Program-made: the position numbers and the translations under genes | Shown here: positions 3,408 to 48,380 of the stretch, piece by piece | How positions within the stretch are numbered: position 1 is the first letter of the stretch | Layout: each line of letters starts with the position of its first letter | Assembly (NCBI GenBank): GCA_964611205.1 | Contig: CAZSZB010000004.1 | Location: 12,121-76,120 of the forward strand | Length of the DNA: 64,000 nucleotides | From: an uncultured Candidatus Saccharibacteria bacterium | GTDB taxonomy: Bacteria > Patescibacteriota > Minisyncoccia > Phycocordibacterales > UBA918 | Direction: 5' to 3' | The notes under the pieces: generated by a model | The model's database searches: none | The model's input: only the letters and a program-made list of their open reading frames with translations | Told to the model about the DNA's origin: nothing

Positions 3408-3419
3408 CTTTAATATTTT

Positions 3420-4643: not shown

Positions 4644-4647
4644 AAAT

Positions 4648-6405: not shown

Positions 6406-6406
6406 A

Positions 6407-7039
6407 GTGATTATGACTGGTTTATTTAAAATGAAAAGAGTAAGGAAGCGGGGAATGACTTTGGTTGAAGTCATGGTTTCAGTCTCATTATTCACAATAA
6501 TAATGCTAGCGGTTACCAGTAGCATTGCCGCCTTGTATAAATACAATTCTTATACTATTTCACAAACGTACCAGGTTTATCACGCTAGAAGGGGAGTAGA
6601 ATCTTTGGTGCGTGATGTGCGAGAAATGACTTTTGCTGACGACGGTTCTTTTCCTTTAGCACGGATGGAGAATAATATTATAGGTTTTTATAGTGATATA
6701 GATCGCGATGATAGTGTTGAGTATGTAGAGTATGAGTTAGCGACTACAACTATTTTGTATAAAAGAGTTTACAACGCTACCGGAACGCCAGTCACTTACA
6801 ATTTAACAGAGCCAGATGAAATTCATGTTTTATCAGAGTATGTCCAAAATATGCTTCAGGGGACATCCACTTTCTTTTATTATGATAGGTCTGGTAATCT
6901 GGCAAATAGTTCTACTCGAGTAACTGATATTGGTTTTATCAGAGTACAGGCAATAGTGAACATTGATGCCGTTAAAAACCCTGGTCAATTTATGCTTCGT
7001 GGTAGTGCTGCTTTACGTAATATAATTAATAACTCATGA
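6407..7039 (+). CDS. Minor pilin-like protein with a prepilin-type leader
   Basis: The N-terminus KRG|MTLVEVMVSVSLFTI has Glu at +5 relative to the cleavage site. Confidence 0.65.
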   Translation: MIMTGLFKMKRVRKRGMTLVEVMVSVSLFTIIMLAVTSSIAALYKYNSYTISQTYQVYHARRGVESLVRDVREMTFADDGSFPLARMENNIIGFYSDIDRDDSVEYVEYELATTTILYKRVYNATGTPVTYNLTEPDEIHVLSEYVQNMLQGTSTFFYYDRSGNLANSSTRVTDIGFIRVQAIVNIDAVKNPGQFMLRGSAALRNIINNS

Positions 7040-8451
7040 GAATTAGTCATCACAACAAGGGCGCTCTTTTGATACTAGTCCTTATATTTGGAGCTATTTT
7101 TCTTACTCTGATAGTTGGTTTTATGAGAGTTGTATTAATTCAAGTAACAGTACAGAAGGAAATGACTCACTCTGCTCAAGCTAGAGAAATAGCTGAAGCT
7201 GGTCTTGATTATTACAAGTGGCGTTTAGCTCATTATCCAGACGATTTACAAAATGGAACGAATGCACCCGGTCCTTATGTGATGGTTTATGAAGATCCTG
7301 AATTAGGTCCGGTCGGTGAATTCTCCTTGGAATTTGCTAGCACTACTTATTGTGGAGATGTGAGTTCTATTGAAATTACCTCCACCGGACATACTTATGG
7401 TAATCCGGATGTGAAGCGTACAGTCTACGGTCGCTACGCCCGACCGACGGTGGCAGAGTACGCTTATATTATAAATTCCAACGTTTGGGCTGGAGATGAC
7501 CGAACGATTATTGGACCATATCACTCAAATGGTGGAATAAGAATGGACGGAGTTAATAATTCTATAGTGACATCTGGCCAGGAGACTTGGAAGTGTGATA
7601 GCAATTATGGCTGTAGCCCGACAAAACATAACGCTAATGGAGTGATTGGGGACGGACCGAATCATGATCTATGGTCTTTTCCTAGCACCCCAATTAACTT
7701 TACTGGTTTGACAGTTGATCTGGCAAATATGCAAGATAAAGCCAAGAATGGCGGCGGCGTTTATATTCCTCCGTCAGGTAAGCAGGGTTATAAAATAGTT
7801 TTGAAATCTAACGGCACTTTTGATTTATACGTAGTAAATAAAAAAGATAATGAACCACAAGGTAACGCTTGGGGGTATCGGCTAAATAAGATTAAAAATG
7901 CAAAATATGAAGGAAACTACAACATTTCAGCTTCTTGCCCATTAGTTTTCGTTGAAGATATGGTTTGGTTGGAAGGGGAAGTCTCTGGCTTGGTTACCAT
8001 CGCTGCCGCTGACGTTGATACAGTAGGATCTGACCCCTCCATGATATTAAATAACAACATAACTTATAGTTCTGATGAAGCTGGTCTATTAGCAATAGCG
8101 GAATACGATATGTTGGTGGGATTTGATGTTCCTAATAATATGGAACTCGAAGGTATCTTTGTCGCTCAAAATGGTCACTTTGGTCGTAATTTTTATAATG
8201 CCAATGATTTACCATCTGCATGGGATCAATATGTTAAACGTAATTCCTTAACCATTAATGGCACCATAGTCTCTAATGGCAGCGTTGGAACAAAATGGAT
8301 TTGCTACGCTTGGTGGCTCGGTGAACACTATTGTTCTGGTTTTGAAACTAGATTCAATTCGTACGATCGTAATCTAGTAGATAATCCACCGCCACTGGCA
8401 CCTCGTACTTCAGATGATTTTAAATTTGTTGAATGGCTAGAGGTGGAGTAG
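7036..8451 (+). CDS. Membrane-anchored protein, possibly a pilus tip or assembly component (PilX-like); function not established
   Basis: It has an N-terminal membrane helix after NKG|ALLIL, overlaps the preceding pilin gene, and is the last gene of the pilus block. Confidence 0.4.
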   Translation: MRISHHNKGALLILVLIFGAIFLTLIVGFMRVVLIQVTVQKEMTHSAQAREIAEAGLDYYKWRLAHYPDDLQNGTNAPGPYVMVYEDPELGPVGEFSLEFASTTYCGDVSSIEITSTGHTYGNPDVKRTVYGRYARPTVAEYAYIINSNVWAGDDRTIIGPYHSNGGIRMDGVNNSIVTSGQETWKCDSNYGCSPTKHNANGVIGDGPNHDLWSFPSTPINFTGLTVDLANMQDKAKNGGGVYIPPSGKQGYKIVLKSNGTFDLYVVNKKDNEPQGNAWGYRLNKIKNAKYEGNYNISASCPLVFVEDMVWLEGEVSGLVTIAAADVDTVGSDPSMILNNNITYSSDEAGLLAIAEYDMLVGFDVPNNMELEGIFVAQNGHFGRNFYNANDLPSAWDQYVKRNSLTINGTIVSNGSVGTKWICYAWWLGEHYCSGFETRFNSYDRNLVDNPPPLAPRTSDDFKFVEWLEVE

Positions 8452-12731: not shown

Positions 12732-13151
12732 ATGGAAAAAATAATTGTCTACACGGATGGTGGAGCGCGTGGTAATCCAGGGCCAGCAGCAATTGGGGTT
12801 CATATTGTTGATGATTCTGGTCAGGTTGTGAAAGAAGCAAAAGAAACAATTGGAAATAGTACAAATAATTTTGCCGAGTATTATGGTGTGTTGCGTGGCT
12901 TACAATTGCTAAAAGAGTTATACGGAAAAAAGACCAAAGACATGGAAATTGAATTGAGAATGGATTCGGAATTGGTAAAAAAACAACTAAATGGAGAGTA
13001 CCAAATAAAAGAACCTGGCCTGGTACCGATGTTTATGGAAATTCATAACCTGCGAGTAGCGAACTTTTCGAATCTTACCCTAACTCACATAAAAAGATCG
13101 TTAAATAAAGAAGCAGATCGCTTGGTCAATGAAGCGCTTGATGGTAAGTAG
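12732..13151 (+). CDS. rnhA: Ribonuclease HI
   Basis: The N-terminus YTDGGARGNPGPAAIGV and the acidic catalytic residues (AEY, DSELV, NKEAD) are present. Confidence 0.8.
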   Translation: MEKIIVYTDGGARGNPGPAAIGVHIVDDSGQVVKEAKETIGNSTNNFAEYYGVLRGLQLLKELYGKKTKDMEIELRMDSELVKKQLNGEYQIKEPGLVPMFMEIHNLRVANFSNLTLTHIKRSLNKEADRLVNEALDGK

Positions 13152-19817: not shown

Positions 19818-19854
19818 AACAACAAGTTCGAGACCAGGTCTCGAACTTGTTGTT
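19818..19854 (-). terminator. Perfect 18-bp palindrome just 3' of the minus-strand gene; terminator or protein-binding site
   Basis: AACAACAAGTTCGAGACC, a single a, then GGTCTCGAACTTGTTGTT. Confidence 0.4.
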
Positions 19855-20828
19855 TAATAGGGGCGAGAGCCGAGTCGCTTGGCAATCCTGTAAAGTATGA
19901 AGAGTATTCCCAACAGAAAGACAATTTCTGTTATCACAGGAAAACCTAGAATAAAAGATAGGGCGGCCAACACCACAGTAAATAGAATAGAGAAAACATT
20001 ACCAAAAAAGGTTAAAAAATCGCCGAAAAACCCAGGGGGTTTTTCGGCACTTAATGACCGGTCTTTTTTGCTTATTCTTTCAACGTAACCAAAGCCGTCT
20101 TCATTTACCTCAATTATTCCATTCTCTCTATCTAACCTAGCTTGCCTTTGTTCCCGATAATCATCTAAATTTTCTTTTAGGTCATTTATATTATTAGTCA
20201 TTACTCCTAGTACCTGCCCAATCGGTTTATAGTTAGTAAATTGTTCTAGTCCAGGTTCGGTCTTGTTATTATCGTCGGTAGTATTCGTATCACTTATTAT
20301 TGGTGAGTCGTAGATTAGTGGGTTAGTACCAGCTTCTATTTCTTCTTTGTCACTTATACCGTCTCCGTCATCATCAGTGTCAGTCTGGTCACCGATCCCG
20401 TCTTGGTCAGTGTCTTTGTCTACAAATATTGTATCTTCAGCTAAGTTTAAGTTGGTAATAATATCGGTCCCCCTAGAGTTCGAAGTCGCCTTGAAGTGAG
20501 ATAATACAACTTTAATTGTTGAAGTTCCATAACTAGGCTGCCAATCTATCCAGCTATCAATAACTTGATCCGCCGCGGCTGTTATTGGATTTTTGCCAAT
20601 AGAATTATCATTAACAAAAAATTCTACAGTGCCGGTGAAGTCTGTTTTGGTATTGTTACGGACAGCAACATAAATTCTTGTTGGTACATCAGCCAGAATA
20701 TTTTCGGTATCGTACCAAAGACCATTAACTATTCCGACGTTAGAAGCTAATGCCAGGTTTGGAAATAGAAACACCAGAATACCTAGTGTATTTATTAACC
20801 ATCTCATTTTTTCATTATAACCTATCAA
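19854..20828 (-). CDS. Secreted and membrane-anchored protein with thrombospondin type-3-like calcium-binding repeats
   Basis: It has a signal peptide, a mid-region DKDTDQDGIGDQTDTDDDGDGISD (DxDxDG repeats), and two C-terminal transmembrane helices. Confidence 0.6.
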   Translation of the reverse strand: MIGYNEKMRWLINTLGILVFLFPNLALASNVGIVNGLWYDTENILADVPTRIYVAVRNNTKTDFTGTVEFFVNDNSIGKNPITAAADQVIDSWIDWQPSYGTSTIKVVLSHFKATSNSRGTDIITNLNLAEDTIFVDKDTDQDGIGDQTDTDDDGDGISDKEEIEAGTNPLIYDSPIISDTNTTDDNNKTEPGLEQFTNYKPIGQVLGVMTNNINDLKENLDDYREQRQARLDRENGIIEVNEDGFGYVERISKKDRSLSAEKPPGFFGDFLTFFGNVFSILFTVVLAALSFILGFPVITEIVFLLGILFILYRIAKRLGSRPY

Positions 20829-21053: not shown

Positions 21054-23228
21054 ATGGCACGAGCATTTCCACTGGATAGACTACGTAACTTCGGTATCGT
21101 TGCACACGTTGATGCCGGGAAAACAACAACATCAGAACGCATTCTTTTTTATACAGGAATGAGTCACAAAATGGGTGAGACCCACGACGGTACATCAATT
21201 ACTGACTGGATGGACCAAGAACGTGAGCGCGGTATTACTATTACTGCCGCTGCTATTTCTTGTAACTGGGCGAAAACTTTAGAGACTGATCGCACTAATA
21301 AAGACAAGATGTACAGTTTCAACATCATCGACACTCCTGGACACATCGACTTTACTGCCGAGGTAAAACGATCGATGCGCGTGCTCGACGGAGCAGTGGT
21401 TGTATTCGATGGGGCAGCAGGAGTAGAGCCACAGACTGAAACTAACTGGGGTTATGCCGACGAAGCTAGTGTGCCACGAATTTGTTTCGTCAATAAAATG
21501 GATAAATTAGGAGCTGATTTTGATGCTTCTGTAAAATCTATTGAAAATCGTCTTTCTAAAAAAGCTTGTCGTATTCAAATCCCAATGGGCTCAGAAAACA
21601 ATATGCGAGGTGTGATAGATCTGATCACTATGAAGGCCTATACTTTTGGCGGGGAAATGGGAATGGAAGTTAGCGAACAAGAAATTCCTGAAGAATTCAA
21701 AGCTGAGGCAGAAAAACGTCGCGCTGAACTTATCGAACGTGTAGTTGAACATGATGATGCTCTGATGGAAGCCTTTCTAGAAGGGAAGGAACCTTCTTTA
21801 GAGGATTTAAAGAAGACTCTTCGTAAAGCTGTTTTAGCTAACGAGATTTTCCCAGTGATGACTGGTACTGCTCTACAAAATGTTGGAGTGCAACTAATTC
21901 TTGATGCCGTGGTTGACTACCTCCCGTCGCCACTAGACCTGCCTGATACTGTAGGACATGATCCAAAAGACGAAGAAATTACATTAACTCGCAAGGCTTC
22001 TGACGAAGAACCAATGTCTGCTCTAGTTTTCAAACTCCAAGATGACAAGTTTGTTGGTCAATTAGCTTTCTTCCGAGTTTATTCTGGTGTTATTAAAAGT
22101 GGTACATATATCCTTAACGCTTCAACAGGTAACAAAGAGCGAGTAGGACGAATTGTCCGCTTGATGGCTGATAAACGGGAAGAGGTAGAAGAAGTGTATG
22201 CTGGAGAAATTGCTGCTGCCGTAGGTATTAAAGAAGTAAAAACATCACATACACTATGTGATGTCGATAAACCAATTCTACTAGAAACCATCACTTTCCC
22301 AGCTCCGGTGGTAGCAGTTCGGGTAGAACCAAAGACAAAGAACGACCAAGAAAAAATGGGTGTGGCTTTGAAGCGATTGGCTGATGAAGATCCGACATTT
22401 GTGGTCTCGACTGATGATGAAACATTAGAGACTATTATTGCTGGTATGGGTGAGTTACACCTAGACATTCTGATCGACCGTATGAAACGAGAATTTGGTG
22501 TTGAAGCAAATATTGGTCAACCACAGGTTGCTTACCGAGAAACTATTCAACGAGAAGCTGAAGCTGAACACAAATATATCAAACAATCTGGTGGTCGTGG
22601 ACAATATGGTCATGTTAAGATCCGTATTAAACCACTCGAACCCCTAGCTGAAGGGGAGACCGTAGCTAAGAATGTGACTCGCGAAGATCATTTCGAGTTT
22701 GTCAACAGTATTAAAGGCGGTACTATTCCACAAGAATATATTCCAGCAGTGATGAAGGGTTGTAGAGAGGCCATGGCTCGTGGTCAGGTAGCTGGTTATA
22801 AGATGGAAGATGTTTCCGTTGAATTGTTTGACGGTTCTTACCATGATGTGGACTCAAGCGAAATTGCCTTTAAATTGGCTGGTATTAACGCTTTCAAGGA
22901 AGCAGCTAAGAGAGCTAATGCGGTTATTCTTGAGCCGATAATGAAGGTTGAAGTGCGAACTCCAGAAGAATATATGGGAGATATTAACGGAAATATTTCT
23001 TCTAAGCGCGGACAAGTAGAGGCTTCAGAAGAATTGGGTGGAAAAACTATTGTTCACGCCAAGGTGCCTTTGTCTGAAATGTTTGGTTACACAAATACTT
23101 TGCGTTCTATGACACAGGGCCGAGCTTCAATGACAATGGAATTTGATCATTATGAAGTAGTGCCTCCAAACGTAGCCGAGGAGATTAAAAAAGCTCGAGG
23201 AGTTAAATCAGATGTTGAGACAGCTTAA
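21054..23228 (+). CDS. fusA: Elongation factor G
   Basis: The G-domain motif AHVDAGKTTTSE is present in a 724-aa protein. Confidence 0.95.
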   Translation: MARAFPLDRLRNFGIVAHVDAGKTTTSERILFYTGMSHKMGETHDGTSITDWMDQERERGITITAAAISCNWAKTLETDRTNKDKMYSFNIIDTPGHIDFTAEVKRSMRVLDGAVVVFDGAAGVEPQTETNWGYADEASVPRICFVNKMDKLGADFDASVKSIENRLSKKACRIQIPMGSENNMRGVIDLITMKAYTFGGEMGMEVSEQEIPEEFKAEAEKRRAELIERVVEHDDALMEAFLEGKEPSLEDLKKTLRKAVLANEIFPVMTGTALQNVGVQLILDAVVDYLPSPLDLPDTVGHDPKDEEITLTRKASDEEPMSALVFKLQDDKFVGQLAFFRVYSGVIKSGTYILNASTGNKERVGRIVRLMADKREEVEEVYAGEIAAAVGIKEVKTSHTLCDVDKPILLETITFPAPVVAVRVEPKTKNDQEKMGVALKRLADEDPTFVVSTDDETLETIIAGMGELHLDILIDRMKREFGVEANIGQPQVAYRETIQREAEAEHKYIKQSGGRGQYGHVKIRIKPLEPLAEGETVAKNVTREDHFEFVNSIKGGTIPQEYIPAVMKGCREAMARGQVAGYKMEDVSVELFDGSYHDVDSSEIAFKLAGINAFKEAAKRANAVILEPIMKVEVRTPEEYMGDINGNISSKRGQVEASEELGGKTIVHAKVPLSEMFGYTNTLRSMTQGRASMTMEFDHYEVVPPNVAEEIKKARGVKSDVETA

Positions 23229-23257
23229 CTACACAAGATACGATTAAGTCTGCATAA

Positions 23258-23296
23258 ACAAAAGACCAGTCGCTATTGCGACTGGTCTTTTGTTTA
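23258..23296 (+). terminator. Intrinsic terminator after fusA
   Basis: Stem AGACCAGTCGC, loop tatt, stem GCGACTGGTCT, followed by TTTGTTT. Confidence 0.7.
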
Positions 23297-23365
23297 TATT
23301 CAGTAATACACAGTCTAGGTTCTGCCTAAGTATATTTAGATCAAACACAGGTTACAATATAAGTA

Positions 23366-24367
23366 ATGTCTTCATCAACTCGGGTGTTCCTGTTTACTGT
23401 CGTAGCTTTGTTTATCTCAGCCATTGCACTTTTGTCTGTTGCTATAGCGAGTGCAGATGTTGGTCCCTTTGATCAGCCTGTGGAAATGTCTGGCTATGCT
23501 TGGAGTAGTAATGTCGGCTGGATATCCCTAAACTGCTCTAATGATAGTTCTTGTGCTACATCAGACTACAAAGTAAGAATAAACACCGATTATACAGTCA
23601 CCGGCTATGCTTGGAGCAGTAACGTTGGTTGGATTAAATTTGGTGGTCTTTCTGGTATGCCGGCTAGTGGCGGACAAGCCCAGATAAACAATGACCGAGA
23701 TCAAATGACTGGTTGGATAAGAGCTTGCTCAGCTACCGACGCTGGTGATTGTACTGGAGGATTAGACCCTGATGGTGGTGGTTGGGATGGTTGGATTTCT
23801 TTAAATTGTTCTAATAACAGCGGTTGTGCCACTTCCAATTACGCTACTACTGTAGGAGTAGGTAGTTTTGGTAATTACGCCTGGGGCGGTGATGTTATTG
23901 GTTGGGTAAGCTTTGCTACAGCTGATTTCACTCAACCATGTACCCCCGCTCTGGCTTGTAATGCTGAAAATAATGGCTATGCTATTAACAATCAATGGTG
24001 TGAATCAGAGGCGCCAGTTAGCTGTGCGGGTAATGAATATTGTTATGACACTGTAGGTTGTAAGTTAGTAGATATTAACTATCAATTTTCTGTCAATCAA
24101 TTATTAGTTAAAAAAGAAGGGAAAGTTACTTTAGATTGGTCAGTTGATGGAGCTGATGTATCACAATGTAAGGTGACTGGTAACAACAATGATTCCTGGA
24201 TTGGTCTAACTGATGAGAGCGTATCTGGTGGAGTAGCAATTGTGTCTAGTCCTTTAACTAGACAGGTAACAGCCTTTACTCTTAGTTGTGTTCCAGCCGG
24301 TGGTGGTAGTTTCTATGATTTGAAAACTATTGAAGTTAACCTAGTACCAACGATAATCGAAAGCTAA
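23366..24367 (+). CDS. Secreted Trp-rich repeat protein
   Basis: It has a signal peptide and three repeats of the type GYAWSSNVGWI(S/K)(L/F)..C.. Confidence 0.55.
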   Translation: MSSSTRVFLFTVVALFISAIALLSVAIASADVGPFDQPVEMSGYAWSSNVGWISLNCSNDSSCATSDYKVRINTDYTVTGYAWSSNVGWIKFGGLSGMPASGGQAQINNDRDQMTGWIRACSATDAGDCTGGLDPDGGGWDGWISLNCSNNSGCATSNYATTVGVGSFGNYAWGGDVIGWVSFATADFTQPCTPALACNAENNGYAINNQWCESEAPVSCAGNEYCYDTVGCKLVDINYQFSVNQLLVKKEGKVTLDWSVDGADVSQCKVTGNNNDSWIGLTDESVSGGVAIVSSPLTRQVTAFTLSCVPAGGGSFYDLKTIEVNLVPTIIES

Positions 24368-24368
24368 C

Positions 24369-24677
24369 ATGCAAATAATTCGTAATTTTTTCACAAAGTA
24401 CCAAATATCTATCCTTATTTTATCTAATATATTGATATTGATTACTATTTGTTTGGTTTTATATGGTTGGTATTATCTCTATACTTCAAACCTGACGAGC
24501 CATAAGTTTTTTGGAATAGATGACGATTCAGAATCAAGTGAGATTGAAGAAAAGACATCTCAAAAAATAACTCTTGAAGATAAAAAAGCTTTATTGGAAA
24601 AACTAGAAGGCAATCCCGATAATGTGTCAATTGAAGATAAACGAAAATTATTATCGACTCTCCAGTCGTCTGAGTAA
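24369..24677 (+). CDS. Small membrane protein with an acidic, Ser-rich tail
   Basis: 102 aa with a single transmembrane helix. Confidence 0.4.
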   Translation: MQIIRNFFTKYQISILILSNILILITICLVLYGWYYLYTSNLTSHKFFGIDDDSESSEIEEKTSQKITLEDKKALLEKLEGNPDNVSIEDKRKLLSTLQSSE

Positions 24678-24699
24678 GTTCTATTTTAAATAAAATATA

Positions 24700-24900
24700 A
24701 CCATGAAAACCCTCACCACCAGCCTCATAAAAATCTCCATCATCCTCACCATCGTCACGGTCGCTTTCGCCGTCAACTACATCCAAGCTGCTTGGTCCGC
24801 TCCACAGAACAACCCACCAGATGGCAACACCCCAGCTCCCATTAACACCGGCAGCGAAGCCCAGGTGAAAGAAGGAGCTTTATCAGTTGATGGATTAGTA
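24700..24900 (+). repeat. Copy 1 of the ~195-bp 5' module (signal peptide plus conserved stalk start)
   Basis: About 90% DNA identity to copies at 25471, 26148, 28146 and 28900. Confidence 0.8.
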
Positions 24901-25398
24901 TCCCACTCTAACAACAACATCTTTGTGGGTGCCGGGGAACAAGAATTTTATGTCAAACCCGGGTTTAAGGGTGAGGTACAGACTAGTGGATATACTACGA
25001 TAGGTACTTCTTCAGGTACTGTGTATACACCTAATGACTTTGAGGTAGGAGGTCAAGTACGAGCTAGTCAGTATTGTGATGAGAATGGGGCTAATTGTTT
25101 AAGTGGTGGGGGGTCATCAGGCGAAAATGGAGTGTTGGGAGGCGGTTGGCCAGTTTTTTTTGTGTGTGAAACACGGAGCGATTTTAAAAGTTTATTCATT
25201 TTATTAAAAATGAACCCATCGACCGTAGTATACGGGACTTTCAATGTGTCCCAAGCAGACAGAACTTCTACTTGGCATTCGTACGTTTATTTTAACAAAT
25301 TAGACAGAAACCCTACAGGATCTGGAGATTATGCCCCGCCGTCATGTGCAAAAAACATGGATACCTTGATCAGTGAAGGAAAGGCCATTTTCAATTAA
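24703..25398 (+). CDS. Paralog A of the island family: shared N-terminal module with a unique C-terminal domain
   Basis: N-terminus MKTL..IKISIIL.IVTVAFAVNYIQAAWSAPQNNPPDGNTPAPIN.G.EAQVKEGALSVDGL. Confidence 0.7.
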   Translation: MKTLTTSLIKISIILTIVTVAFAVNYIQAAWSAPQNNPPDGNTPAPINTGSEAQVKEGALSVDGLVSHSNNNIFVGAGEQEFYVKPGFKGEVQTSGYTTIGTSSGTVYTPNDFEVGGQVRASQYCDENGANCLSGGGSSGENGVLGGGWPVFFVCETRSDFKSLFILLKMNPSTVVYGTFNVSQADRTSTWHSYVYFNKLDRNPTGSGDYAPPSCAKNMDTLISEGKAIFN

Positions 25399-25461
25399 TA
25401 TTTTATTTTTAGCTAAACAGAAATCTTAAGCAAAAATCACAATATAACAGTTCATTTTAAT

Positions 25462-26142
25462 TTGATAACAACCATGAAAACCCTCCCCCACACCATCATA
25501 AAAATCTCCATCATCCTCACCATTGTCACGGTTGCTTTCGCCGTCAACTATCTCTACGCTGCTTGGTCCGCCCCACAGAACAACCCACCAGATGGCAACA
25601 CCCCAGCTCCCATCAACGCTGGTACTGAAGCCCAAGTGAAAGAAGGAGCTTTGTCGGTGGATGGGTTAACTTCGTATGCCAATAACAACATTTTTGTTGG
25701 TGCAGGAGGTCAACAATTCTCTATCAAGCCAGGGTTTAAGGGCAATACACAAACTAGTGACTATACAACAATTGGTGACGCCTCTAGTACAGTCTATATT
25801 TTAGGCAGTTTAGAAGTAGAAAATAGCAACGGTACAGGCAGTGATTATTTGTGGCGCTATGAGAATTTTGATGAAGATATTTACCCTTCTTTTTTTCCAG
25901 GTATTTGTGCTTATGGGTTGAATTGGAAATGTCCCGGCTGGGACAAAGTAATGTGGAAACAACCTCCAGCTAGTAGAGATACTTGTAATCAAAATATTAA
26001 CGGACCATACACATGCGCTGTAAATGAGAGTAAGACATGTAACGATGTAATTAAGGCGTGTGATCATTCGGGCGAACCTTGTGGTTATTCTGAAAGTATA
26101 GTGACTTGTAAAAAGTTAAAAACTCCCTACGTGATAGAATAA
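25462..26142 (+). CDS. Paralog B of the island family, with a Cys-rich C-terminal domain
   Basis: It carries the same N-terminal module; the probable start is MKTLPH at 25474. Confidence 0.7.
   Translation: MITTMKTLPHTIIKISIILTIVTVAFAVNYLYAAWSAPQNNPPDGNTPAPINAGTEAQVKEGALSVDGLTSYANNNIFVGAGGQQFSIKPGFKGNTQTSDYTTIGDASSTVYILGSLEVENSNGTGSDYLWRYENFDEDIYPSFFPGICAYGLNWKCPGWDKVMWKQPPASRDTCNQNINGPYTCAVNESKTCNDVIKACDHSGEPCGYSESIVTCKKLKTPYVIE
25471..25670 (+). repeat. Copy 2 of the 5' module
   Basis: Near-identical DNA. Confidence 0.8.
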
Positions 26143-26147
26143 TAAAT

Positions 26148-26345
26148 ATAATGATAAAAACCCTCCCCCACACCATCATAAAAATTTCCATCATTCTCGG
26201 CATCGTCACGGTAGCTTTCGCCGTCAACTACATCCAAGCTGCTTGGTCCGCCCCACAGAACAACCCACCAGATGGCAACACCCCAGCTCCCATCAACGCT
26301 GGTACTGAAGCTCAAGTGAAAGAGGGAGCTTTGTCGGTGGATGGG
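26148..26345 (+). repeat. Copy 3 of the 5' module
   Basis: Near-identical DNA. Confidence 0.8.
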
Positions 26346-26747
26346 TTGGCTGTTTTCGGAAATATGATTATTTCTGGAAGTACAATTATTGGCAGCACTA
26401 CCTTGCCGTCAAGCGACATTACCTTGGGTGTGGATGGTTCAATAGGAGCCACGTCGTATTTATATACTTCAGATAAGAACTTAAAAACAAACATTAAAAC
26501 AGTAGCTGGTCTTGATACAGTTAAACAGCTGCGCGGAGTATCCTTTAACTGGAAAAAAAATGGTAAGAAATCTGTAGGTCTTATTGCTCAGGAAGTAGAA
26601 GAAGTGTTTCCAGAATTGGTCACCACTACAGACAGTGGACTCAAATATGTTGAGTACGGAAATTTAATTGCGCCACTTATTGAAGCTATTAAGGAACAAC
26701 AAATTCAAATTAATCAGTTACAGGCAGAACTGGATACTTTGAAATAG
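26151..26747 (+). CDS. Paralog C of the island family, with a C-terminal intramolecular-chaperone domain of the phage tail-fibre/endosialidase (peptidase S74) type
   Basis: The C-terminus SDKNLKTNIKT..LRGVSFNWKK..GLIAQEVEEVFPELV..KYVEYGNLIAPLIEAIKEQQ matches the S74 auto-chaperone consensus. Confidence 0.7.
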   Translation: MIKTLPHTIIKISIILGIVTVAFAVNYIQAAWSAPQNNPPDGNTPAPINAGTEAQVKEGALSVDGLAVFGNMIISGSTIIGSTTLPSSDITLGVDGSIGATSYLYTSDKNLKTNIKTVAGLDTVKQLRGVSFNWKKNGKKSVGLIAQEVEEVFPELVTTTDSGLKYVEYGNLIAPLIEAIKEQQIQINQLQAELDTLK

Positions 26748-26750
26748 AAT

Positions 26751-28109
26751 ATGGTGAATAAAATTTTTATAAAAAAATTTATAGTTCCTATCGCTATCTT
26801 TGTTTTAATTTTACCCATTGGCGTATGGGCTTTGGGAATAGTAGAAGAGGGTTTCTTAGTCAATAATTCAGAAGTAGCAATAGATGCCCACGGTACGTGT
26901 AAAAAAGTAAAAGCTAATGATGGCCGAGAATACTTTGTTCCGACCAAAGGTATAGATGAATGGAGTTCCTTCTTAGAAAATACACCAGTTGGGATGACTC
27001 TTTCAGAATGTATTGATTTTTCTGATCAAGTTGAGTTCATTACTAGTTTTAGCTGTCCCAATCCCTATCATTATATGAGATGTGGTTTGGTGGGTGTTAC
27101 TGATTCTATTACTAGTGATGGTGGATATATATATGCTTTTGAAGATGGGTATAACGGATCATATTCTTCACAAAAATTGCACATATACAAATATAATAAA
27201 GATACAAAATCTGTTTCACTTGTGGAGACAATAAAAAATCTTGGTAATTATCCTAAATGGATAGAGAGTTTTGCTATAAACTCCGATGGTAGTCGAATTT
27301 TACTTACTAGAAGACAAGATGTCGCCGGAGGAACATCTTCATTTTATATTTATGCATTTGATGGTGTGAATGCTAATTTACTTTACACAGGTTCTTATAA
27401 GGGAGGATTTAGCCACAACGTTTCTGCTATAAATGAGGATGGTACCGTGGTGGCTTTTCAAGGAAGAATTTATGAAAAAAACGGATCTACCTATGATGAG
27501 GTGTTTGATAATGGATTTCATGGAGCATTAGCATCCAATGACCCACAACAAAGTCACATAGGTGCAAATCTATATCTTGGTGATGATAGTTTTTATCTCT
27601 TTAAAAGAGAGGGGAGGGGAGACATTGTACAAAAACAGTCTGATGGGTCATGGCAAGTTATACAGTCAATTTTACCAAGTGTAAATAACAAATGGCAGGC
27701 TAGTTTTGCTGCTGTTTCTAACGATTATTCACTTATGGCTATTAACTCAAAAAAGGATTCTTCTTCTAATTATAAATCTGATATTTATAAAAAGAATGAG
27801 TCTGGCCCTGGCTACACCAAGTTGGGCACTATCGACTTGGGAGACCTGCAAAGACATACGGTTGAATTTTCAGCTGCCGGAAGATATTTTATTTCAGCTG
27901 GAAAGACCTGGAACATAGACCCTATGTTAGAAGGTGGTTCGCCGATTGTAGTTAAATCAACGGCAAACTGGATGGATTCTTATAGTACTTCTCAGTTTGG
28001 TTATGCTCATGAGAATAGTCTAGGAGATATTGTGGTAGCAAGGCCAGATATAAATGGTGGAGCTAAATTTTCTGGAAAATTTTATATATACAAGCGACTT
28101 CCCAATTAG
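26751..28109 (+). CDS. Secreted protein with beta-propeller-like repeats
   Basis: It has a signal peptide and repeated SDGS/EDGT..V beta-strand motifs. Confidence 0.5.
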   Translation: MVNKIFIKKFIVPIAIFVLILPIGVWALGIVEEGFLVNNSEVAIDAHGTCKKVKANDGREYFVPTKGIDEWSSFLENTPVGMTLSECIDFSDQVEFITSFSCPNPYHYMRCGLVGVTDSITSDGGYIYAFEDGYNGSYSSQKLHIYKYNKDTKSVSLVETIKNLGNYPKWIESFAINSDGSRILLTRRQDVAGGTSSFYIYAFDGVNANLLYTGSYKGGFSHNVSAINEDGTVVAFQGRIYEKNGSTYDEVFDNGFHGALASNDPQQSHIGANLYLGDDSFYLFKREGRGDIVQKQSDGSWQVIQSILPSVNNKWQASFAAVSNDYSLMAINSKKDSSSNYKSDIYKKNESGPGYTKLGTIDLGDLQRHTVEFSAAGRYFISAGKTWNIDPMLEGGSPIVVKSTANWMDSYSTSQFGYAHENSLGDIVVARPDINGGAKFSGKFYIYKRLPN

Positions 28110-28145
28110 GGTATTAGTAATGTTATTATAGAACATATAAATAAA

Positions 28146-28345
28146 ATAATGAAAACCCTCCCCCACACCATCATAAAAATCTCCATCATCCTCGGCATCG
28201 TCACGGTCGCTTTCGCCGTCAACTACATCCAAGCTGCCTGGTCTGCCCCACAGAACAACCCACCAGATGGCAACACCCCAGCTCCCATCAACGCTGGTAC
28301 TGAAGCCTAAGTGAAAGAAGGAGCTTTGTCGGTGGATGGGTTAAC
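28146..28345 (+). repeat. Copy 4 of the 5' module
   Basis: Near-identical DNA apart from the C-to-T change that creates the stop. Confidence 0.8.
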
Positions 28346-28841
28346 TTCGTATGCCAACACTAATATATTCATTGGTGCTAATAATCAAAGTCTCGAAATT
28401 AAACCTGGCTCAAAAGGCTCTGTTAGTGCCGCCGGCTACACTACTCTTGATGTGGTTGGTGCCAACGGCACTCTCTACACTCCTAAAGACTTAGAAGTAG
28501 GAGGTCAGGTACGAGCTGGTCAGTATTGTGATGAGAATGGGGAGAATTGTTTGACTGGCGGGGGGCCATCAGGCGGAACTCCAATCACTTATTCTGTAAC
28601 TGTGAGGTATCCACAGGATAAGAGTGGTAGCAGTGCAACAAAGTTGATCACTTCAAATGCTGGTTTTTTCATGTGTGCCTTGACCACACACCAAACTATA
28701 TATTATGAGACTTTTGGTTCAGATAACTTGGATGAGTATTGCAAAATCACCTATAATGGAAGTTCTGATGATTGGACATTGACTGGTAGAATCGTTGATA
28801 CAGTGCAGGCTCGGATAACATGCACTATGACCTGTCGTTAA
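28149..28841 (+). pseudogene. Paralog D of the island family, interrupted by an in-frame TAA at codon 54
   Basis: At 28308-28310 the codon GAA GCC TAA replaces GAA GCC CAA (EAQ) found in the other copies. The downstream frame continues with VKEGALSVDGL. Confidence 0.6.
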
Positions 28842-28896
28842 TAAATTAATTATGTACCACTGTACATGATAAAATAAAATTACAGTCTAATCTAAA

Positions 28897-29566
28897 GTGA
28901 TAATGAAAACCCTCCCCCACACCATCATAAAAATCTCCATCATCCTCGGCATCGTCACGGTCGCTTTCGCCGTCAACTACATCCAAGCTGCCTGGTCTGC
29001 CCCACAGAACAACCCACCAGATGGCAACACCCCAGCTCCCATCAACGCTGGTACTGAAGCCCAAGTGAAAGAAGGAGCTTTGTCGGTGGATGGGTTAACT
29101 TCGTATGCCAATAACAACATTTTTGTTGGTGCAGGAGGTCAACAATTCTCTATCAAGCCAGGGTTTAAGGGTGGGGTGGAGACTGGAGGGTATGTGACTT
29201 TAGACCCGTCAGGGACAAGTAGTTCTCTTTATGTTCCTGATAATTTGGGGGTGGGAGGGCAGGTGAGAGCCGGTCAGTATTGTAATGAAGATGGTATCGT
29301 GTATTGATGGAGGGAGTGTTATAGGTACACTGTCGACTCATAATTTTACCATAAGGGGTTACGATGGTGAAAGTCAGTCTATGAATGTGGGGGAATATAG
29401 CTTCTGTGCTTTAACACGTGTTGAAATTTTTGATGATGGTGGGGCACGAGGGTGGCCAACGGAAGGATGTTATTTAAGTCGCTCCGGAAATAACTGGACA
29501 ATGACGGCAACTAATAATTACGGAGGATCGCCGGATATTACGAGATGTGAAGCCACTTGTTTTTAA
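28897..29566 (+). pseudogene. Paralog E of the island family, split by a frameshift near 29293-29295
   Basis: The N-terminal module plus ..GGQVRAGQYCNEDG then shifts frame; the next frame reads ..VSCIDGGS.., homologous to NCLTGGG of paralog D. Confidence 0.55.
28900..29100 (+). repeat. Copy 5 of the 5' module
   Basis: Near-identical DNA. Confidence 0.8.
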
Positions 29567-29646
29567 AGCAACTAATTTTTCAAATACACAAAAATTAGAA
29601 AATATACATATATTTAGGATTTTGTTCTATGAGATAAATTGATAGC

Positions 29647-29675
29647 TTGCAAAATGTGTGCATATTCTGTAATAT
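29647..29675 (+). promoter_or_regulatory. Candidate sigma70 promoter for tuf
   Basis: -35 TTGCAA, a 17-bp spacer, -10 TAATAT, about 180 nt upstream of the tuf ATG. Confidence 0.45.
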
Positions 29676-29858
29676 TGCGGACACTGCATACGGCCTTCGG
29701 TCGTGGTAGGGCAATCATAATCGCTCTTTCACACTTTTGAGTGTGCTTTGGTAACGTACTGTTCTCGTGCCGTTTCCATAACACATTCAGCCGAGGTTTT
29801 TATATTTAAAACCCAGCCGTGTGCGGTTGCATTTATAAAAATTAATCTAACTAATTTT

Positions 29859-31049
29859 ATGTCAGATTTTGATCGTTCAAAGCCGCACGTAAACGTTGGA
29901 ACTATTGGTCACGTTGACCATGGTAAAACAACTCTTACGGCTGCGATTCTAACTACCCTAAAAGCTCACGAGAGCGAGGGTTACAGTGCTAACGTTAAAG
30001 ACGTTGGTGATATTGATAAAGCCCCAGAAGAAAAGGCTCGTGGTATTACTATTTCTCTTTCTCACTCTGAGTACGAGACTCCTAATCGTCACTACGCGCA
30101 CATTGATGCTCCTGGTCACGCCGACTACATTAAGAACATGATTACTGGTGCCGCCCAGATGGATGGTGCTGTACTTGTAGTAGCTGCTACTGATGGTGCT
30201 ATGCCACAAACTCGTGAGCACGTACTATTGGCCAAGCAAGTTGGTGTACCTAGTATCATTGTTTTCCTAAACAAATGTGATCTAGTTGATGATGAAGAGA
30301 TGCTCATGCTAGTAGAAGAAGAGCTTCGTGAACTTCTAACTGCTAACAAATTTGACGGAGAAAATGCTCCGATCATACATGGTTCTGCTCTAAAGGCTTT
30401 AGAGGGAGATGCCGAATACCAAGCTAAAATTATTGAATTGGCTAATGCGATGGATTCATTCTTCCCAGAACCAGTTCGTGAGCTTGATAAACCTTTCCTA
30501 ATGCCAGTAGAAGACATCTTCTCTATTGAAGGACGCGGTACAGTAGTAACTGGTCGTGTAGAGCGAGGTAAGGTTAAGGTAGGAGAAGAAATCGAAATTG
30601 TTGGAATCAAGAATACTGTTGTCACAACTGTGACTGGTGTTGAGATGTTTAATAAACAACTTGATGCAGCTCAAGCTGGAGACAATGCTGGTATTTTGCT
30701 ACGAGGTACTAAAAAAGAAGATGTACACCGTGGTCAGGTTCTAGCTGCTAAAGGTTCTGTTACTCCACATACTGAATTTGAAGCCGAAGTGTACATACTT
30801 TCAAAAGATGAAGGTGGTCGTCACACTCCTTTCTTCTCAGGTTATAAGCCTCAGTTCTATATTCGTACAACTGACGTAACAGGAGACGTTACGCTAGCTG
30901 AAGGAACAGAAATGGTTATGCCAGGAGACACTGCAACTTTCAAAGTAAAGCTAGTATCTCCAGTAGCTCTAGAGGAACAACAAAGTTTTGCTATTCGTGA
31001 AGGAGGTAAGACAGTGGGAGCTGGTGTTGTAACCAAAATAGTCGCTTAA
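29859..31049 (+). CDS. tuf: Elongation factor Tu
   Basis: The protein starts [25 protein letters not shown]. The ORF-track start at 29748 is an in-frame upstream extension. Confidence 0.95.
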
Positions 31050-31475: not shown

Positions 31476-31591
31476 AGAAGTTAACTGATATAAATTATAT
31501 TTGTTAAATAGATTATATTCTTTATTCTAATTTGGATATTAAGATAGATAATCTAGCTTTGAAAATCATTTCTTTTCTCATTGCCATATAA

Positions 31592-31627
31592 CAAAAGACC
31601 GGCGCCTTTGGCGCCGGTCTTTTGTTA
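31592..31627. terminator. Strong intrinsic terminator directly after rpsJ
   Basis: Stem GACCGGCGCC, loop ttt, stem GGCGCCGGTC, followed by TTTTGTT. Confidence 0.75.
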
Positions 31628-31697
31628 TAAACATAACCCTATAAAACCTTTCTTATTTCAAGTTATGCTAAATAAATAGACTAAAATAAAGCAAATC

Positions 31698-31910
31698 ATG
31701 AATTTTGAAAATCAACACAATCTCACCCCTGAAGATGAAGCCTTAATTAAAAAGGTTATAGAAGAAGCAGTAGAAGAAATTCCTGAAATTACTCCAGTAA
31801 AAAGATCACGACCGGCTGAATTAGGAGAAGATGACAACCAACATCCATTAAAATCAGAAGATGAGATAGAAAGGTCTTTAAATCCTCATGGTTTCGAGGA
31901 ATTAAAATAA
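31698..31910 (+). CDS. Small acidic hypothetical protein
   Basis: 70-aa ORF with no recognizable domain. Confidence 0.35.
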   Translation: MNFENQHNLTPEDEALIKKVIEEAVEEIPEITPVKRSRPAELGEDDNQHPLKSEDEIERSLNPHGFEELK

Positions 31911-31956
31911 ACTACAAAAATATTTTCAACACACAATACTCCAGTTAACTGGAGTA

Positions 31957-32274
31957 TTATTGTTCAGGTTTACGCTCGCGGCTCTTAAACACAAAGTCTT
32001 TTAAGGACTTTGTGTTTTTAAGTAATTGATAAATAGCTTCTGGTTGTTCAGTGTGGACCGATATTTTTTGGATACTTTGACCAGATATAAGGAGTTCAAA
32101 ACCGGCGTTTGTATAAACACAGGTCAAAAATCTCTTTCCAGATCCTTTTTTGCTGTTTACTTTAATTTCACCAGGAGCAATCATTTTTATGCCTGGTATT
32201 TTTTTTAATTCACGAACGACGGTCTGAGCAGTTTCAGTTAGAGTAGTATGTTCACGTCCTCGAGCTTTAGTCAT
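31957..32274 (-). CDS. Hypothetical protein
   Basis: 105 aa starting at MTKARG. The first 11 codons of the ORF-track version overlap the terminator T-run and are rejected. Confidence 0.45.
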   Translation of the reverse strand: MTKARGREHTTLTETAQTVVRELKKIPGIKMIAPGEIKVNSKKGSGKRFLTCVYTNAGFELLISGQSIQKISVHTEQPEAIYQLLKNTKSLKDFVFKSRERKPEQ

Positions 32275-32289
32275 TATGAGGAGAATAGC

Positions 32290-32320
32290 ATAAAAAGAAA
32301 AAGGCACCTAAGTGGTGCCG
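32290..32320 (-). terminator. Intrinsic terminator on the minus strand
   Basis: Stem GGCACC, loop acttag, stem GTGCC, then TTTTTCTTTTT when read on the minus strand. Confidence 0.5.
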
Positions 32321-32331
32321 AGTCCCCCTCC

Positions 32332-32535
32332 TTAGAAGCTGTCATAATCCCCCGGAGGGTATTTTCCCGTCCAGCCTTGAGTAGCCAAGGGAGGGCGGTT
32401 CGATCCGAACTGTTCCGTCTTGGCTAACCATTGAGCGAATTCGTGCCCATCAGTTTGCAGCCGTGATTCGGAGTGTTCGTTTGGACCAGGTGAAGTTCCG
32501 TCACCTTGTGGTCCATCATTGTGCATAATCAACAT
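32332..32535 (-). CDS. Small hypothetical protein in a GC-rich segment
   Basis: 67 aa starting MLIMHNDGPQGDG, with an AGGAGG ribosome-binding site 8 nt upstream. Local GC is about 55%. Confidence 0.45.
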   Translation of the reverse strand: MLIMHNDGPQGDGTSPGPNEHSESRLQTDGHEFAQWLAKTEQFGSNRPPLATQGWTGKYPPGDYDSF

Positions 32536-32593
32536 ATTTTTCACCTCCTCATTATTTGTACCACACAATAATTAACTATTTTATATTTTTGAA

Positions 32594-32640
32594 CACAAAA
32601 ACCGGTACCCCCTCATTTGGGAGTACCGGTTAGTTTTTTC
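32594..32640. terminator. Bidirectional intrinsic terminator
   Basis: AAACCGGTAC, loop cccctcatttgggA, stem GTACCGGTT, then AGTTTTTT. Confidence 0.6.
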
Positions 32641-32670
32641 TGCACGCTTCACTACCTCGTGTGACTGGCC

Positions 32671-32883
32671 TTAACCTTTGGTCAGTGCATCCAGGGTTTC
32701 TTTAGCGAGGTTGTCAAGAGATCCCTTGACCAACTTCTGAGTCAGCCGGATTTTGCACTGCTCAGTGGCACAGTACAGTTTGTAGCCCTTGGCAGAAACA
32801 TACAGAGCGCTGCCCAGGCCGTCAACTACGACTTCTCGACCGCACCCGCAAGCACACGGCACCGTGACATTTGAATGTTCCAT
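32671..32883 (-). CDS. Small zinc-ribbon protein (CxC...CxxC), GC-rich
   Basis: 70 aa starting MEHSNVTVPCACGCG, with a second Cys pair YCATEQC, and an AAGGAGA ribosome-binding site 7 nt upstream. Confidence 0.5.
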   Translation of the reverse strand: MEHSNVTVPCACGCGREVVVDGLGSALYVSAKGYKLYCATEQCKIRLTQKLVKGSLDNLAKETLDALTKG

Positions 32884-33107
32884 GATCGTCTCCTTGTTGA
32901 GTATCGTCAGTACTCTGACAAAAAAATGTAATTTTGGCAAGTTTTTGTTGACTTTGACTTTTATTTCCCGTATTATAGCCGCGTTCTAACCTCGTTATAT
33001 ATGTCCCCTGGTAGGGAGATATAAAACAACAAACCGTTACAGAAGAAGTCACAGCATTCAGCCGAATGTTGTCTTATTATTTATTCAATTAAGTTTCACT
33101 GATCTAT

Positions 33108-47951: not shown

Positions 47952-48380
47952 CTAATTATTTTTAGCCAGACAGACGGCACACTTGCAGCCACCAGCCTGA
48001 ATGAAGTCAGATGAAGTGTAGTCATTACCATAATCAATAGTGATTTCTTCACCAGCTTTTATATTTTTGCTGGCTCGCATATAAATTCGATTTTCTGTTA
48101 TCTCATGTTCAGCTTCAGCGTTAGGTCCACAACTGTGATTAATATAGCGAGCAATGTTACTCCGGTCTTTTCCATCGATAACCAAGTCCTCATTAACAGT
48201 GAAAAGATAGCGACCTCCTCTCTGGTCGGCTTCCTCTGCGTTTATACGATCACCAGTGTACTCAATTATTAGTTGATCTCTTTTAATATCTTCTCCTGCA
48301 AATAGACCTAACCCAGCACTAGATTTTTTAACTGTGACTGAGGGACGATAGCTAGGGTATTCGACTTCTTCTATTACCAT
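47952..48380 (-). CDS. SET-domain protein (putative lysine methyltransferase)
   Basis: NHSCGPN motif, ELTFDYG-like region, and a post-SET Cys cluster (GGCKCAVC). Confidence 0.75.
   Translation of the reverse strand: MVIEEVEYPSYRPSVTVKKSSAGLGLFAGEDIKRDQLIIEYTGDRINAEEADQRGGRYLFTVNEDLVIDGKDRSNIARYINHSCGPNAEAEHEITENRIYMRASKNIKAGEEITIDYGNDYTSSDFIQAGGCKCAVCLAKNN

Follow-up and report, generated by a model that had tools for sequence, protein, structure and literature searches.

A tandem array of genes with a near-identical 5' module between fusA and tuf of an uncultured Patescibacteria genome: candidate surface fibre proteins

Introduction

What do five neighbouring genes of an ultrasmall bacterium encode that begin almost identically and end in unrelated domains, and how are their beginnings kept alike? 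This question is raised by a stretch of 64,000 nucleotides (nt), hereafter the window, from contig CAZSZB010000004.1 of assembly GCA_964611205.1 (positions 12,121 to 76,120 of the forward strand), which was deposited as an uncultured Candidatus Saccharibacteria bacterium and belongs to the Patescibacteriota in GTDB. Between fusA (21054-23228) and tuf (29859-31049) lie nine open reading frames (ORFs), all on the same strand, and five of these, here called copies A to E, share the first 195 nt of their coding sequence, the 5' module. An earlier interpretation made from the letters of the sequence alone (the original prediction) had described this island as an insertion that carries a cassette system of the phase- or antigen-variable type.

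Host recognition and attachment across thousands of uncultured Patescibacteria lineages are largely unknown, and experimental work has so far mainly implicated type IV pili in Saccharibacteria. In the present study we describe the anatomy and evolution of the array, of which we are highly confident. On balance we favour the reading that the island encodes a set of paralogous surface fibre or adhesin proteins from a large unnamed family of Patescibacteria. Probably, the five genes serve as exchangeable tools for adhesion to host cells and do not act as a programmed on/off switch.

Results

Five direct copies of a 5' module

A repeat finder returned five direct copies, and a 57-mer from the module occurred five times with zero to two mismatches as compared with zero occurrences expected in shuffled sequences. 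The copies lie where they had been predicted, with start codons at 24703 (A), 25474 (B), 26151 or 26154 (C), 28149 (D) and 28903 (E). Their modules cover 24703-24897, 25474-25668, 26154-26348, 28149-28343 and 28903-29097, respectively. When the copies were aligned in register from the ATG, the 60 nt upstream showed only the 28-43% pairwise identity of random sequence, while identity was 88-100% in nt 1-90 and 86-99% in nt 90-195. In nt 195-270 copies B and E were still 99% identical as compared with 25-72% in the remaining pairs. The similarity begins exactly at the ATG and stops abruptly at nt 195. The predicted module length of about 195 bp was correct, and the predicted identity of 90-100% has to be widened to 86-100%. 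Moreover, a 38-mer that had been reported as exact in four copies is exact only in B, D and E, with two mismatches in C and more than three in A. Each of the five genes starts with its own ATG and a complete module, behind an AT-rich upstream region that is unique to it and, therefore, the array contains no expression site with truncated silent cassettes.

The precursors consist, in this order, of a Sec-type signal peptide of about 29 amino acids (aa), an invariant mature N-terminus with the pattern A-W-S/T-x-P...PPxGNxxAPINxGxxxQxKxGxL, a beta-rich stalk, a Gly linker and a C-terminal tip. The short stalk is usually closed by a small Cys loop, QVRAxxYCDENGxNC. In copy A (24703-25398, 231 aa, intact) the signal peptide is followed by AWSAPQNNPPDGNTPAPIN.G.EAQVKEGALSVDGL, and a stalk ending in QVRASQYCDENGANC precedes the Gly linker and a unique tip. 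Copy B (25474-26142, 222 aa, intact) combines the module with a short stalk that lacks the YCDENG box and with a Cys-rich tip. Copy C (26151-26747, 198 aa, intact) continues with a beta-stalk of about 40 aa and a Peptidase_S74 region. Copy D (28149-28841) has a stalk with QYCDENGENC and a tip with four Cys, and is a pseudogene in this strain owing to an in-frame TAA. Copy E (28903-29566), whose tip is homologous to that of D, is frameshifted in this strain. A second shared box, ..VGGQVRA.QYC(D/N)E(N/D)G, is located at 25019-25088 in A, 28471-28540 in D and 29225-29294 in E, and the tips diverge after it. Copies A, B and C are separated by gaps of 8-75 nt.

The module also differs in composition. 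The proportion of C at third codon positions is 0.43-0.51 in the modules and 0.09-0.20 elsewhere, also in the remainder of the five copies and in tuf, fusA and the rps genes. The ratio C/(C+T) at these positions is 0.68-0.77 versus 0.21-0.38 in every other gene, and the GC content is 0.52-0.54 versus 0.36-0.46. The codon composition of the module is foreign to the genome, which might reflect import followed by conversion. The C-rich bias is also present in the related locus L007, weak in the related locus L062 and mild in the family as a whole. RNA folding of the module revealed no excess structure (z = -0.35).

Support from independent assemblies

The array is not an assembly artefact. In ERZ27247346, an independent MEGAHIT assembly, the region from rpsL through copy C and the start of copy D is found on one contig of 224 kb, which differs from the window in one base over 12,136 bp. 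A second contig of 60 kb runs from the module of copy E through tuf. The first contig ends at 28286 and the second begins at 28921, and these points correspond to the first and last 141-mers of a 162-nt exact repeat shared by D and E (28146-28307 and 28900-29061). The contigs break there because a graph with k=141 must break at a true tandem repeat. Logan contigs from other runs join the tail of C to the following gene, orf452, and the tail of E to tuf, and the products of copy D were found in a Joint Genome Institute (JGI) contig of 27.8 kb. Every copy has support from independent assemblies. Between three independent assemblies or samples of this population there is hardly any difference. 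The order of D and E and the single pass through the tail of D are based on the window's own assembly together with the k=141 graph logic. The sole differing base is located at 25626 in the module of copy B (T in the window, C in the ENA contig); copy A has C at this site. It could be the result of a micro-conversion or a read-mapping artefact.

Gene conversion and exchange of distal parts

Copies D and E are identical over nt 1-159 of the module. Over nt 90-195 copies B, C, D and E are 95-99% alike, synonymous sites included, with zero to four differences in nt 97-195. Up to nt 270 copy B equals E, and there D is only 63% like both. In a GENECONV-style permutation of polymorphic sites, two runs were significant. 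The run shared by B and E comprises 52 consecutive concordant polymorphic sites in nt 99-267 (25572-25740 in B, 29001-29169 in E; p<=1e-4) and extends about 75 nt beyond the module. The run shared by D and E comprises 22 concordant sites in nt 13-153 (p<=1e-4), and the 162-nt exact repeat represents the conversion tract of this pair. Copy E is a mosaic of D-like and B-like sequence, since it is identical to D in nt 1-159 and matches B up to nt 270. These tracts confirmed the gene-conversion mosaic of the original prediction, as well as the B-E identity beyond the module. Similar patterns were found in arrays of other Patescibacteria, in which module and downstream identity amounted to 99 and 74% (L015), 92 and 48% (L032) and 84 and 54% (L014).

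Related genomes differ in number and composition of the module genes, as had been anticipated, with one to five copies per locus. In L062 (tuf 80% identical at the nucleotide level) an orf333-like gene, described below, is followed by a gene for a small transmembrane protein, one module gene, a second small transmembrane protein and tuf. In L032 (tuf 76% identical) the orf333-like gene and a transmembrane protein are located between fusA and tuf, and three module genes follow after rpsJ. The small membrane protein at this position has 115 aa in L062 and 108 aa in L032. In L007 the order is A, B, a chimeric gene, a transmembrane protein and tuf. The chimera carries the upstream region of C (72 of 72 nt identical), a module, the middle region of D (about 98%) and a novel tip which begins directly after QYCDENGENC. 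Because of these breakpoints, the module and the YCDENG box are the two junctions where the genes recombine. The mosaic tracts, the C/D chimera and the varying copy number show that gene conversion and tip swapping take place. One of the three paralogues of L032 (8005-8596) is frameshifted at a run of six G (8293-8298) in the Gly linker, which could represent slipped-strand variation or a homopolymer sequencing error.

A comparison of L007 (8-1711) with the window (24856-26347 and 28128-28551) revealed a cassette block with 94-100% identity. From the tail of A through B to the start of C the block is about 99.9% identical outside the modules (about 2 mismatches per kb), and the module of B alone contains 15 differences. 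The tuf and rpsJ genes of L007 are only 78-80% identical to those of the window, with a third-codon identity of 0.50, and the island of L062, which stands at the same tuf distance, can no longer be recognised from its DNA sequence. The near-identity in L007 points either to a movement of cassettes between species or to a chimeric contig.

Relatives with only 76-80% nucleotide identity in tuf still carry orf333 and the small membrane protein, the head of the island, at the fusA-tuf junction, and the GC content of the island equals that of the flanks. Therefore, a recent insertion at this junction, where an insertion had been proposed, is unsupported, and the island is old in this clade.

The module defines a large family of Patescibacteria

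The module has no match in Pfam, NCBIfam or PDB and, as had been noted, belongs to no named domain in the domain libraries. An exhaustive HMMER search with copy A returned 1,774 cluster representatives at E<=1e-3. Most of these have 150-500 aa and match at residues 1-70, and many match again at the QVRAxxYCDENGxNC box near residues 120-140. The defining features of the family are a Sec-type signal peptide and the pattern W..P...N..xP..Q.K.G.L. Of 167 members that were sampled, 137 have the Trp of W..P...N..xP at about precursor position 30, with A-A or x-A, about 14 hydrophobic residues in a row and two K/R before it. This context suggests a signal of the Sec and signal peptidase I type followed by an invariant mature N-terminus. 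Across species the module is only about 40-50% identical in amino acids. Giant members of 1,054-1,757 aa contain the module, four to eight YCDENGxNC units and a C-terminal S74 domain, which is how a fibre is laid out.

Among GTDB species representatives we found 53 loci, nearly all in labelled Patescibacteria lineages, with a few binned under other names. They comprise Paceibacteria, Nomura-, Kaiser-, Falkow-, Nealson- and Portnoybacteria as well as metagenome-assembled genomes (MAGs) labelled Saccharibacteria. A JGI metagenome scan with the module yielded one distant locus, and the module was absent from 2.9 million viral contigs of IMG/VR. The module thus appears to represent a large unannotated family confined to Patescibacteria. 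Neither the size of this family nor the S74 region of copy C had been seen in the original prediction. Source records annotate the members as 'hypothetical protein'. A word-indexed protein search with the 90-aa module returned the truncated D product alone, and exact-sequence look-ups of B, the D tail and the product P0001 found nothing on record. In the literature we found no description of the family or of fibres in Patescibacteria that resemble the mosaic adhesive trimer fibres of Bdellovibrio. A paper on a 'hypervariable gene' of Gracilibacteria was rejected as a description of the family, as it concerns an unrelated PTD repeat.

A type IV pilin or pseudopilin was also considered for the module copies and rejected, since they have no match to PF07963, the N-terminal methylation motif of class III signals, and none of A, B, D and E has a Pfam match. 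The window does carry a type IV pilus cluster (1650-8451) with a PilB-like ATPase, a PilC-like platform protein and a 471-aa ORF without Pfam match. It includes N_methyl pilin-like proteins at 4648-6405 and 6407-7039, the first of which has 585 aa and CarboxypepD_reg/Ig-like (immunoglobulin-like) domains. The module is not a pilin signal, because these true N_methyl pilins were detected in the same window.

Distal domains and inactivated copies

Behind the module we distinguished four types of tip, namely A, B, C (S74) and D/E. The divergence that had been predicted was confirmed, and the count of at least three unrelated types becomes four. The tips of D and E are only 29% identical, yet they are homologous by profile (hhalign probability 87%, E 3.9e-6) with four aligned Cys, as expected from the Cys-containing distal domain that had been proposed for both. 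The tips of A, B, D and the protein P0003 are unique among the top matches.

Copy C matches Peptidase_S74 (PF13884) at aa 107-158, nt 26469-26624, with an E value of 5.8e-18 and 65.4 bits as compared with a cut-off of 22. It also matches PHROG tail-fibre families, down to 5e-33, and the distal subunit of a long tail fibre in PDB 6f45 (1e-4). The region includes the catalytic SDxxxK motif, as defined for the S74 cleavage site (PMC10769870), in the form S107-D108-K-N-L-K112. Copies A, B, D and E have no match in Pfam, NCBIfam, PHROGs or PDB. PDB was also searched by sequence, using the family profile, B, the tail of D, orf333 and orf452 as queries, and no meaningful match was obtained.

Some copies had been predicted to be inactive, and this applies to D and E. 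In copy D, CAA is changed to TAA at 28308-28310; the CAA is kept in every other copy and in L007. Copy E has lost 2 bp between 29296 and 29297. An intact allele of copy E, GGTACTTCG, was found in Logan assemblies of SRR31940685 and SRR31940689 and encodes a product of 221 aa. Both lesions are located away from repeat tracts and are an ordinary point mutation and a non-repeat 2-bp deletion, respectively.

Conserved neighbours, other genes and boundaries of the island

The gene orf333 (23366-24367) encodes a secreted or membrane-anchored protein and is a conserved neighbour of the module genes. In the confident AlphaFold2 model (predicted local distance difference test, pLDDT, 90.9) a helix at the N-terminus is followed by a beta domain rich in Trp, which contains GYAWSSNVGWI repeats, by a Cys-rich segment and, at the C-terminus, by an Ig-like domain. 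According to this model the protein is extracellular and rich in beta structure. Its family comprises 1,436 clusters, all 'hypothetical' and all from Parcubacteria/Paceibacterota. An orf333-like gene is found within 2 kb of module genes in 14 of the 53 loci, in different classes. Translationally coupled to orf333 is the gene of a 102-aa single-pass membrane protein with an acidic tail (24369-24677). Both proteins are the best candidates for a docking partner of the module proteins.

Within the array, between C and D, lies orf452 (26751-28109), which encodes a signal-bearing, secreted or anchored protein. Its only match is a weak, sub-threshold one to a beta-propeller (Lactonase). No counterpart was found in L007, L062, L032 or the 53 GTDB loci, and it was seen in this lineage only.

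The left boundary is marked by an intrinsic-terminator hairpin behind fusA (23254-23297) with a perfect 20-bp stem, a 4-nt loop and a 3' arm that ends in UUUUGUUUAU. The right boundary (29645-29858) consists of a promoter-like TTGCAA-17-TAATAT and a conserved structured leader of tuf. The island forms its own transcription unit or units, because fusA has the terminator hairpin and tuf its own promoter-like element; these separate signals had also been proposed originally. The leader of about 180 nt (29640-29860 in the window) has a minimum free energy z-score of -4.4, and 0 of 200 shuffled sequences fold as well. Together with TTGCAA-17-TAATAT it is also found in L007 (2514-2740), L062 (2844-3084) and L032 (6030-6255). 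The consensus of the four Paceibacteria contains 47 pairs, of which 10 show compensatory changes, and is closed by the long-range helix CACUGCA.../...UGUGCGG. It has no Rfam match and is a candidate for a new cis-regulatory leader. No Rfam match was found within the island.

The best relative of fusA and tuf is a 'Candidatus Paceibacteria' MAG with 76 and 86% amino-acid identity, respectively. Between rpsG and fusA a gene in the opposite orientation (19854-20828, minus strand) encodes a protein of 324 aa that has calcium-binding repeats of the bacterial TSP3 type and a membrane anchor at its C-terminus, and is a second surface-protein gene within the str operon. The S10 operon is broken at 31476-33100, where small ORFs and, on the minus strand, a DUF2103 gene (31957-32307) separate rpsJ from rpsS; the arrangement in L062 is the same. 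Using tblastn with L032 proteins, rplC, rplD and rplW were found nowhere in the 64 kb. At 47952-48380 (minus strand) a 142-aa SET-domain protein is encoded (PF00856, 1.4e-26), which is unusual for a bacterium with such a small genome.

Discussion

The constant N-terminal module and the unrelated distal domains of the tandem array, as proposed originally, are borne out by our analysis; programmed variation and recent insertion are not. As to function, a fibre or adhesin role is marginally favoured. The family most likely builds trimeric fibres, because copy C ends in S74 and long relatives consist of the N-terminal module, YCDENG repeats and S74. The common N-terminus would be exported and docked in one shared way, and the tips would bind different targets, presumably host-cell surfaces of this episymbiont. 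By analogy, the S74 domain of copy C would trimerise the fibre and then cut itself off. Gene conversion would keep the 5' module of the paralogues near-identical. The module and the YCDENG box would serve as homology arms at which tips are swapped and genes fused or deleted, and cassettes may also be exchanged between related species. Variation would arise across strains from ordinary homologous recombination and mutation and would require no programmed switch.

We infer that the proteins form trimeric fibres, are displayed on the surface, act as adhesins and dock to orf333, and several points weigh against this. All family members are known here from sequence and models only, and the tips have no sequence match to known adhesin or lectin folds. 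The S74 domain is absent from four of the five copies, for which trimerisation is extrapolated, and each chain of mature copy C would measure only about 76 aa. It could also be that the signal peptide stays uncleaved and serves as a membrane anchor. The AlphaFold2 monomer of copy A, which was built on an alignment of 145 sequences, was poor (mean pLDDT 63.8), with the signal helix alone confident and no confident stalk, and was not good enough for a fold search; therefore the fibre fold is a prediction only. The link between orf333 and the module is one of neighbourhood in 14 of 53 loci, and we regard orf333 as an anchor of the fibres as doubtful. Furthermore, the near-identity of L007 and the window could reflect a chimeric metagenome contig and not lateral exchange.

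Other explanations of the array have to be considered. Small, Cys-rich, secreted products of tandem genes with a constant N-terminus and a variable C-terminus could also be secreted effectors or bacteriocin-like toxins, in which a common leader and delivery domain carry variable toxic C-termini in the manner of polymorphic toxins, and a parasitic lifestyle is plausible for Patescibacteria. However, Pfam, NCBIfam and PADLOC-independent searches revealed no toxin domain, the tips are unrelated by sequence to known toxins, no small immunity-type ORFs are located between A, B and C, and the S74 chaperone as well as the repeat-rich giant members point to structural fibres. We therefore consider toxins unlikely, and a polymorphic toxin of the Rhs type or of the contact-dependent inhibition type was rejected, as the array has neither a C-terminal toxin family nor a cognate immunity gene between A, B and C. 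Slightly less probable still is programmed phase or antigen variation, in which one expressed copy and silent cassettes would be shuffled at high frequency through the 5' modules. Conserved 5' modules, conversion tracts and two inactive copies, of which E is intact in other samples, would fit this explanation, as would the position of the only base that differs over 12 kb, at a site of the B module that is polymorphic among the paralogues, and the run of six G at the frame break of the L032 paralogue. On the other side, each copy is complete at its 5' end and has its own upstream region, the lesions in D and E are ordinary mutations away from repeat tracts, and the assemblies or samples of the population hardly differ. 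Among the ORFs of at least 120 aa in the window, we found no integrase or other recombinase, no invertase, no transposase and no reverse transcriptase of a diversity-generating retroelement (DGR), in agreement with the original prediction; RecJ and RecG are housekeeping genes. The island contains no invertible segments, no relevant inverted repeats and no tandem or simple repeats. The label of a phase- or antigen-variable cassette system fails because there is no expression site, no truncated cassette and no switch element, and only ordinary inactivating mutations. An arrangement of expression site and silent cassettes such as pilE/pilS, vlsE or vsa was rejected, since promoterless or 5'-truncated donors as well as a recombinase with inverted repeats or simple sequence repeat (SSR) tracts are missing. 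A DGR target was also rejected: a reverse transcriptase is absent, the RVT_3 match at 12732-13151 is an RNase H, and the repeats of the island are paralogue modules and not pairs of template and variable repeats.

Two further explanations are very improbable. The genes could be ordinary diverged paralogues whose N-terminus is kept by purifying selection alone, or an artefact of assembly. Conservation of the module at the protein level across the phylum agrees with purifying selection, but identity among B to E extends to synonymous sites, the tract boundaries are sharp and differ between pairs, and such selection leaves only the limited amino-acid identity seen across species; an artefact is contradicted by the agreement of independent assemblies. 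Least credible is a prophage remnant with leftover tail-fibre genes. The matches of copy C to PHROG tail-fibre families and 6f45 are in line with it, but similarity to phage proteins is limited to the S74 region and the other genes have no PHROG matches. In addition, all copies have signal peptides, no phage genes are located nearby, and the module is missing from the viral contigs and yet has a conserved chromosomal neighbour in many Patescibacteria.

Extending the fibre reading, we tentatively suggest, as a possibility that we do not consider likely, that a 'cellular baseplate' specific to Patescibacteria is made up of the N-module proteins, orf333 and the small membrane protein. As a single conserved platform on the surface, it would dock changeable short trimeric fibres whose tips set the hosts that can be attached, and cassettes would be exchanged between species at the module and the YCDENG box. 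Exchange between species is suggested because the block that is about 99.9% identical between window and L007 adjoins a tuf that is only 78% identical.

The locus reveals a second, unannotated candidate attachment system, found phylum-wide, in which the docking end is constant and the tips can be exchanged. The system includes a conserved partner gene, and its recombination dynamics can be measured. A short motif allows members of the family to be found in any MAG, the tip repertoires can be compared with host range, and the N-module peptide and orf333 are a specific protein pair for a binding test. The locus is also a clean natural case in which concerted evolution is limited to a segment of 195 nt within the genes of a very small genome.

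Comparison with known systems

In Mycoplasma vsp/vlp, Helicobacter bab/hop and Neisseria opa, surface protein families have conserved 5' ends that are kept by gene conversion. The array resembles these families in its near-identical 5' ends that encode signal peptides, its divergent mature parts, its mosaics and some inactive copies. It differs from them in that SSR tracts, invertible promoters and a site-specific recombinase are absent, its upstream regions lack conservation, entire unrelated domains take the place of variable repeat blocks, and there is no sign of high-frequency switching.

Copy C and the long family members resemble phage tail fibres and tailspikes such as the K1F endosialidase, T5 pb1 and S16 gp37 in carrying a bona fide S74 with SDxxxK. 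A constant attachment part and a variable distal receptor-binding part are also known from phages and tailocins with multiple receptor-binding proteins and a conserved N-terminal adaptor. Unlike phage fibres, the genes described here are located on the chromosome of a cellular organism and encode signal peptides, viral contigs do not contain the N-module, and four of the five copies lack S74.

The mosaic adhesive trimer (MAT) fibres of Bdellovibrio bacteriovorus comprise 13 members with S74 and 8 without (Caulton et al. 2024, PMC10769870). They have a conserved domain directly after the signal peptide, variable tips and a surface location, and 'tip swapping' was described for them (PMC10769870). 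Their N-terminal domain, which is beta-rich and comprises roughly 130 aa, has no PDB homologue and is presumed to bind a cell-surface element (PMC10769870). Our family profile also had no PDB match, and PDB covers only C-terminal MAT fragments. The proteins described here differ from MAT fibres in size (mostly about 200 aa versus about 600-1,100 aa) and in their common part, which consists of a motif of 35 aa and a stalk of about 70 aa that carries the Cys loop YCDENGxNC. Moreover, their genes are tightly arranged in tandem with a 5' end homogenised at the DNA level, and the organism has an envelope of the Gram-positive (monoderm) type. Nevertheless, both systems are repertoires of several paralogues in a bacterium living on other bacteria, and both combine a signal peptide, a conserved N-terminal region common to the members, subgroups with and without S74, and diverse tips. 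By architecture, the MAT superfamily of Bdellovibrio is the closest described system to the array between fusA and tuf.

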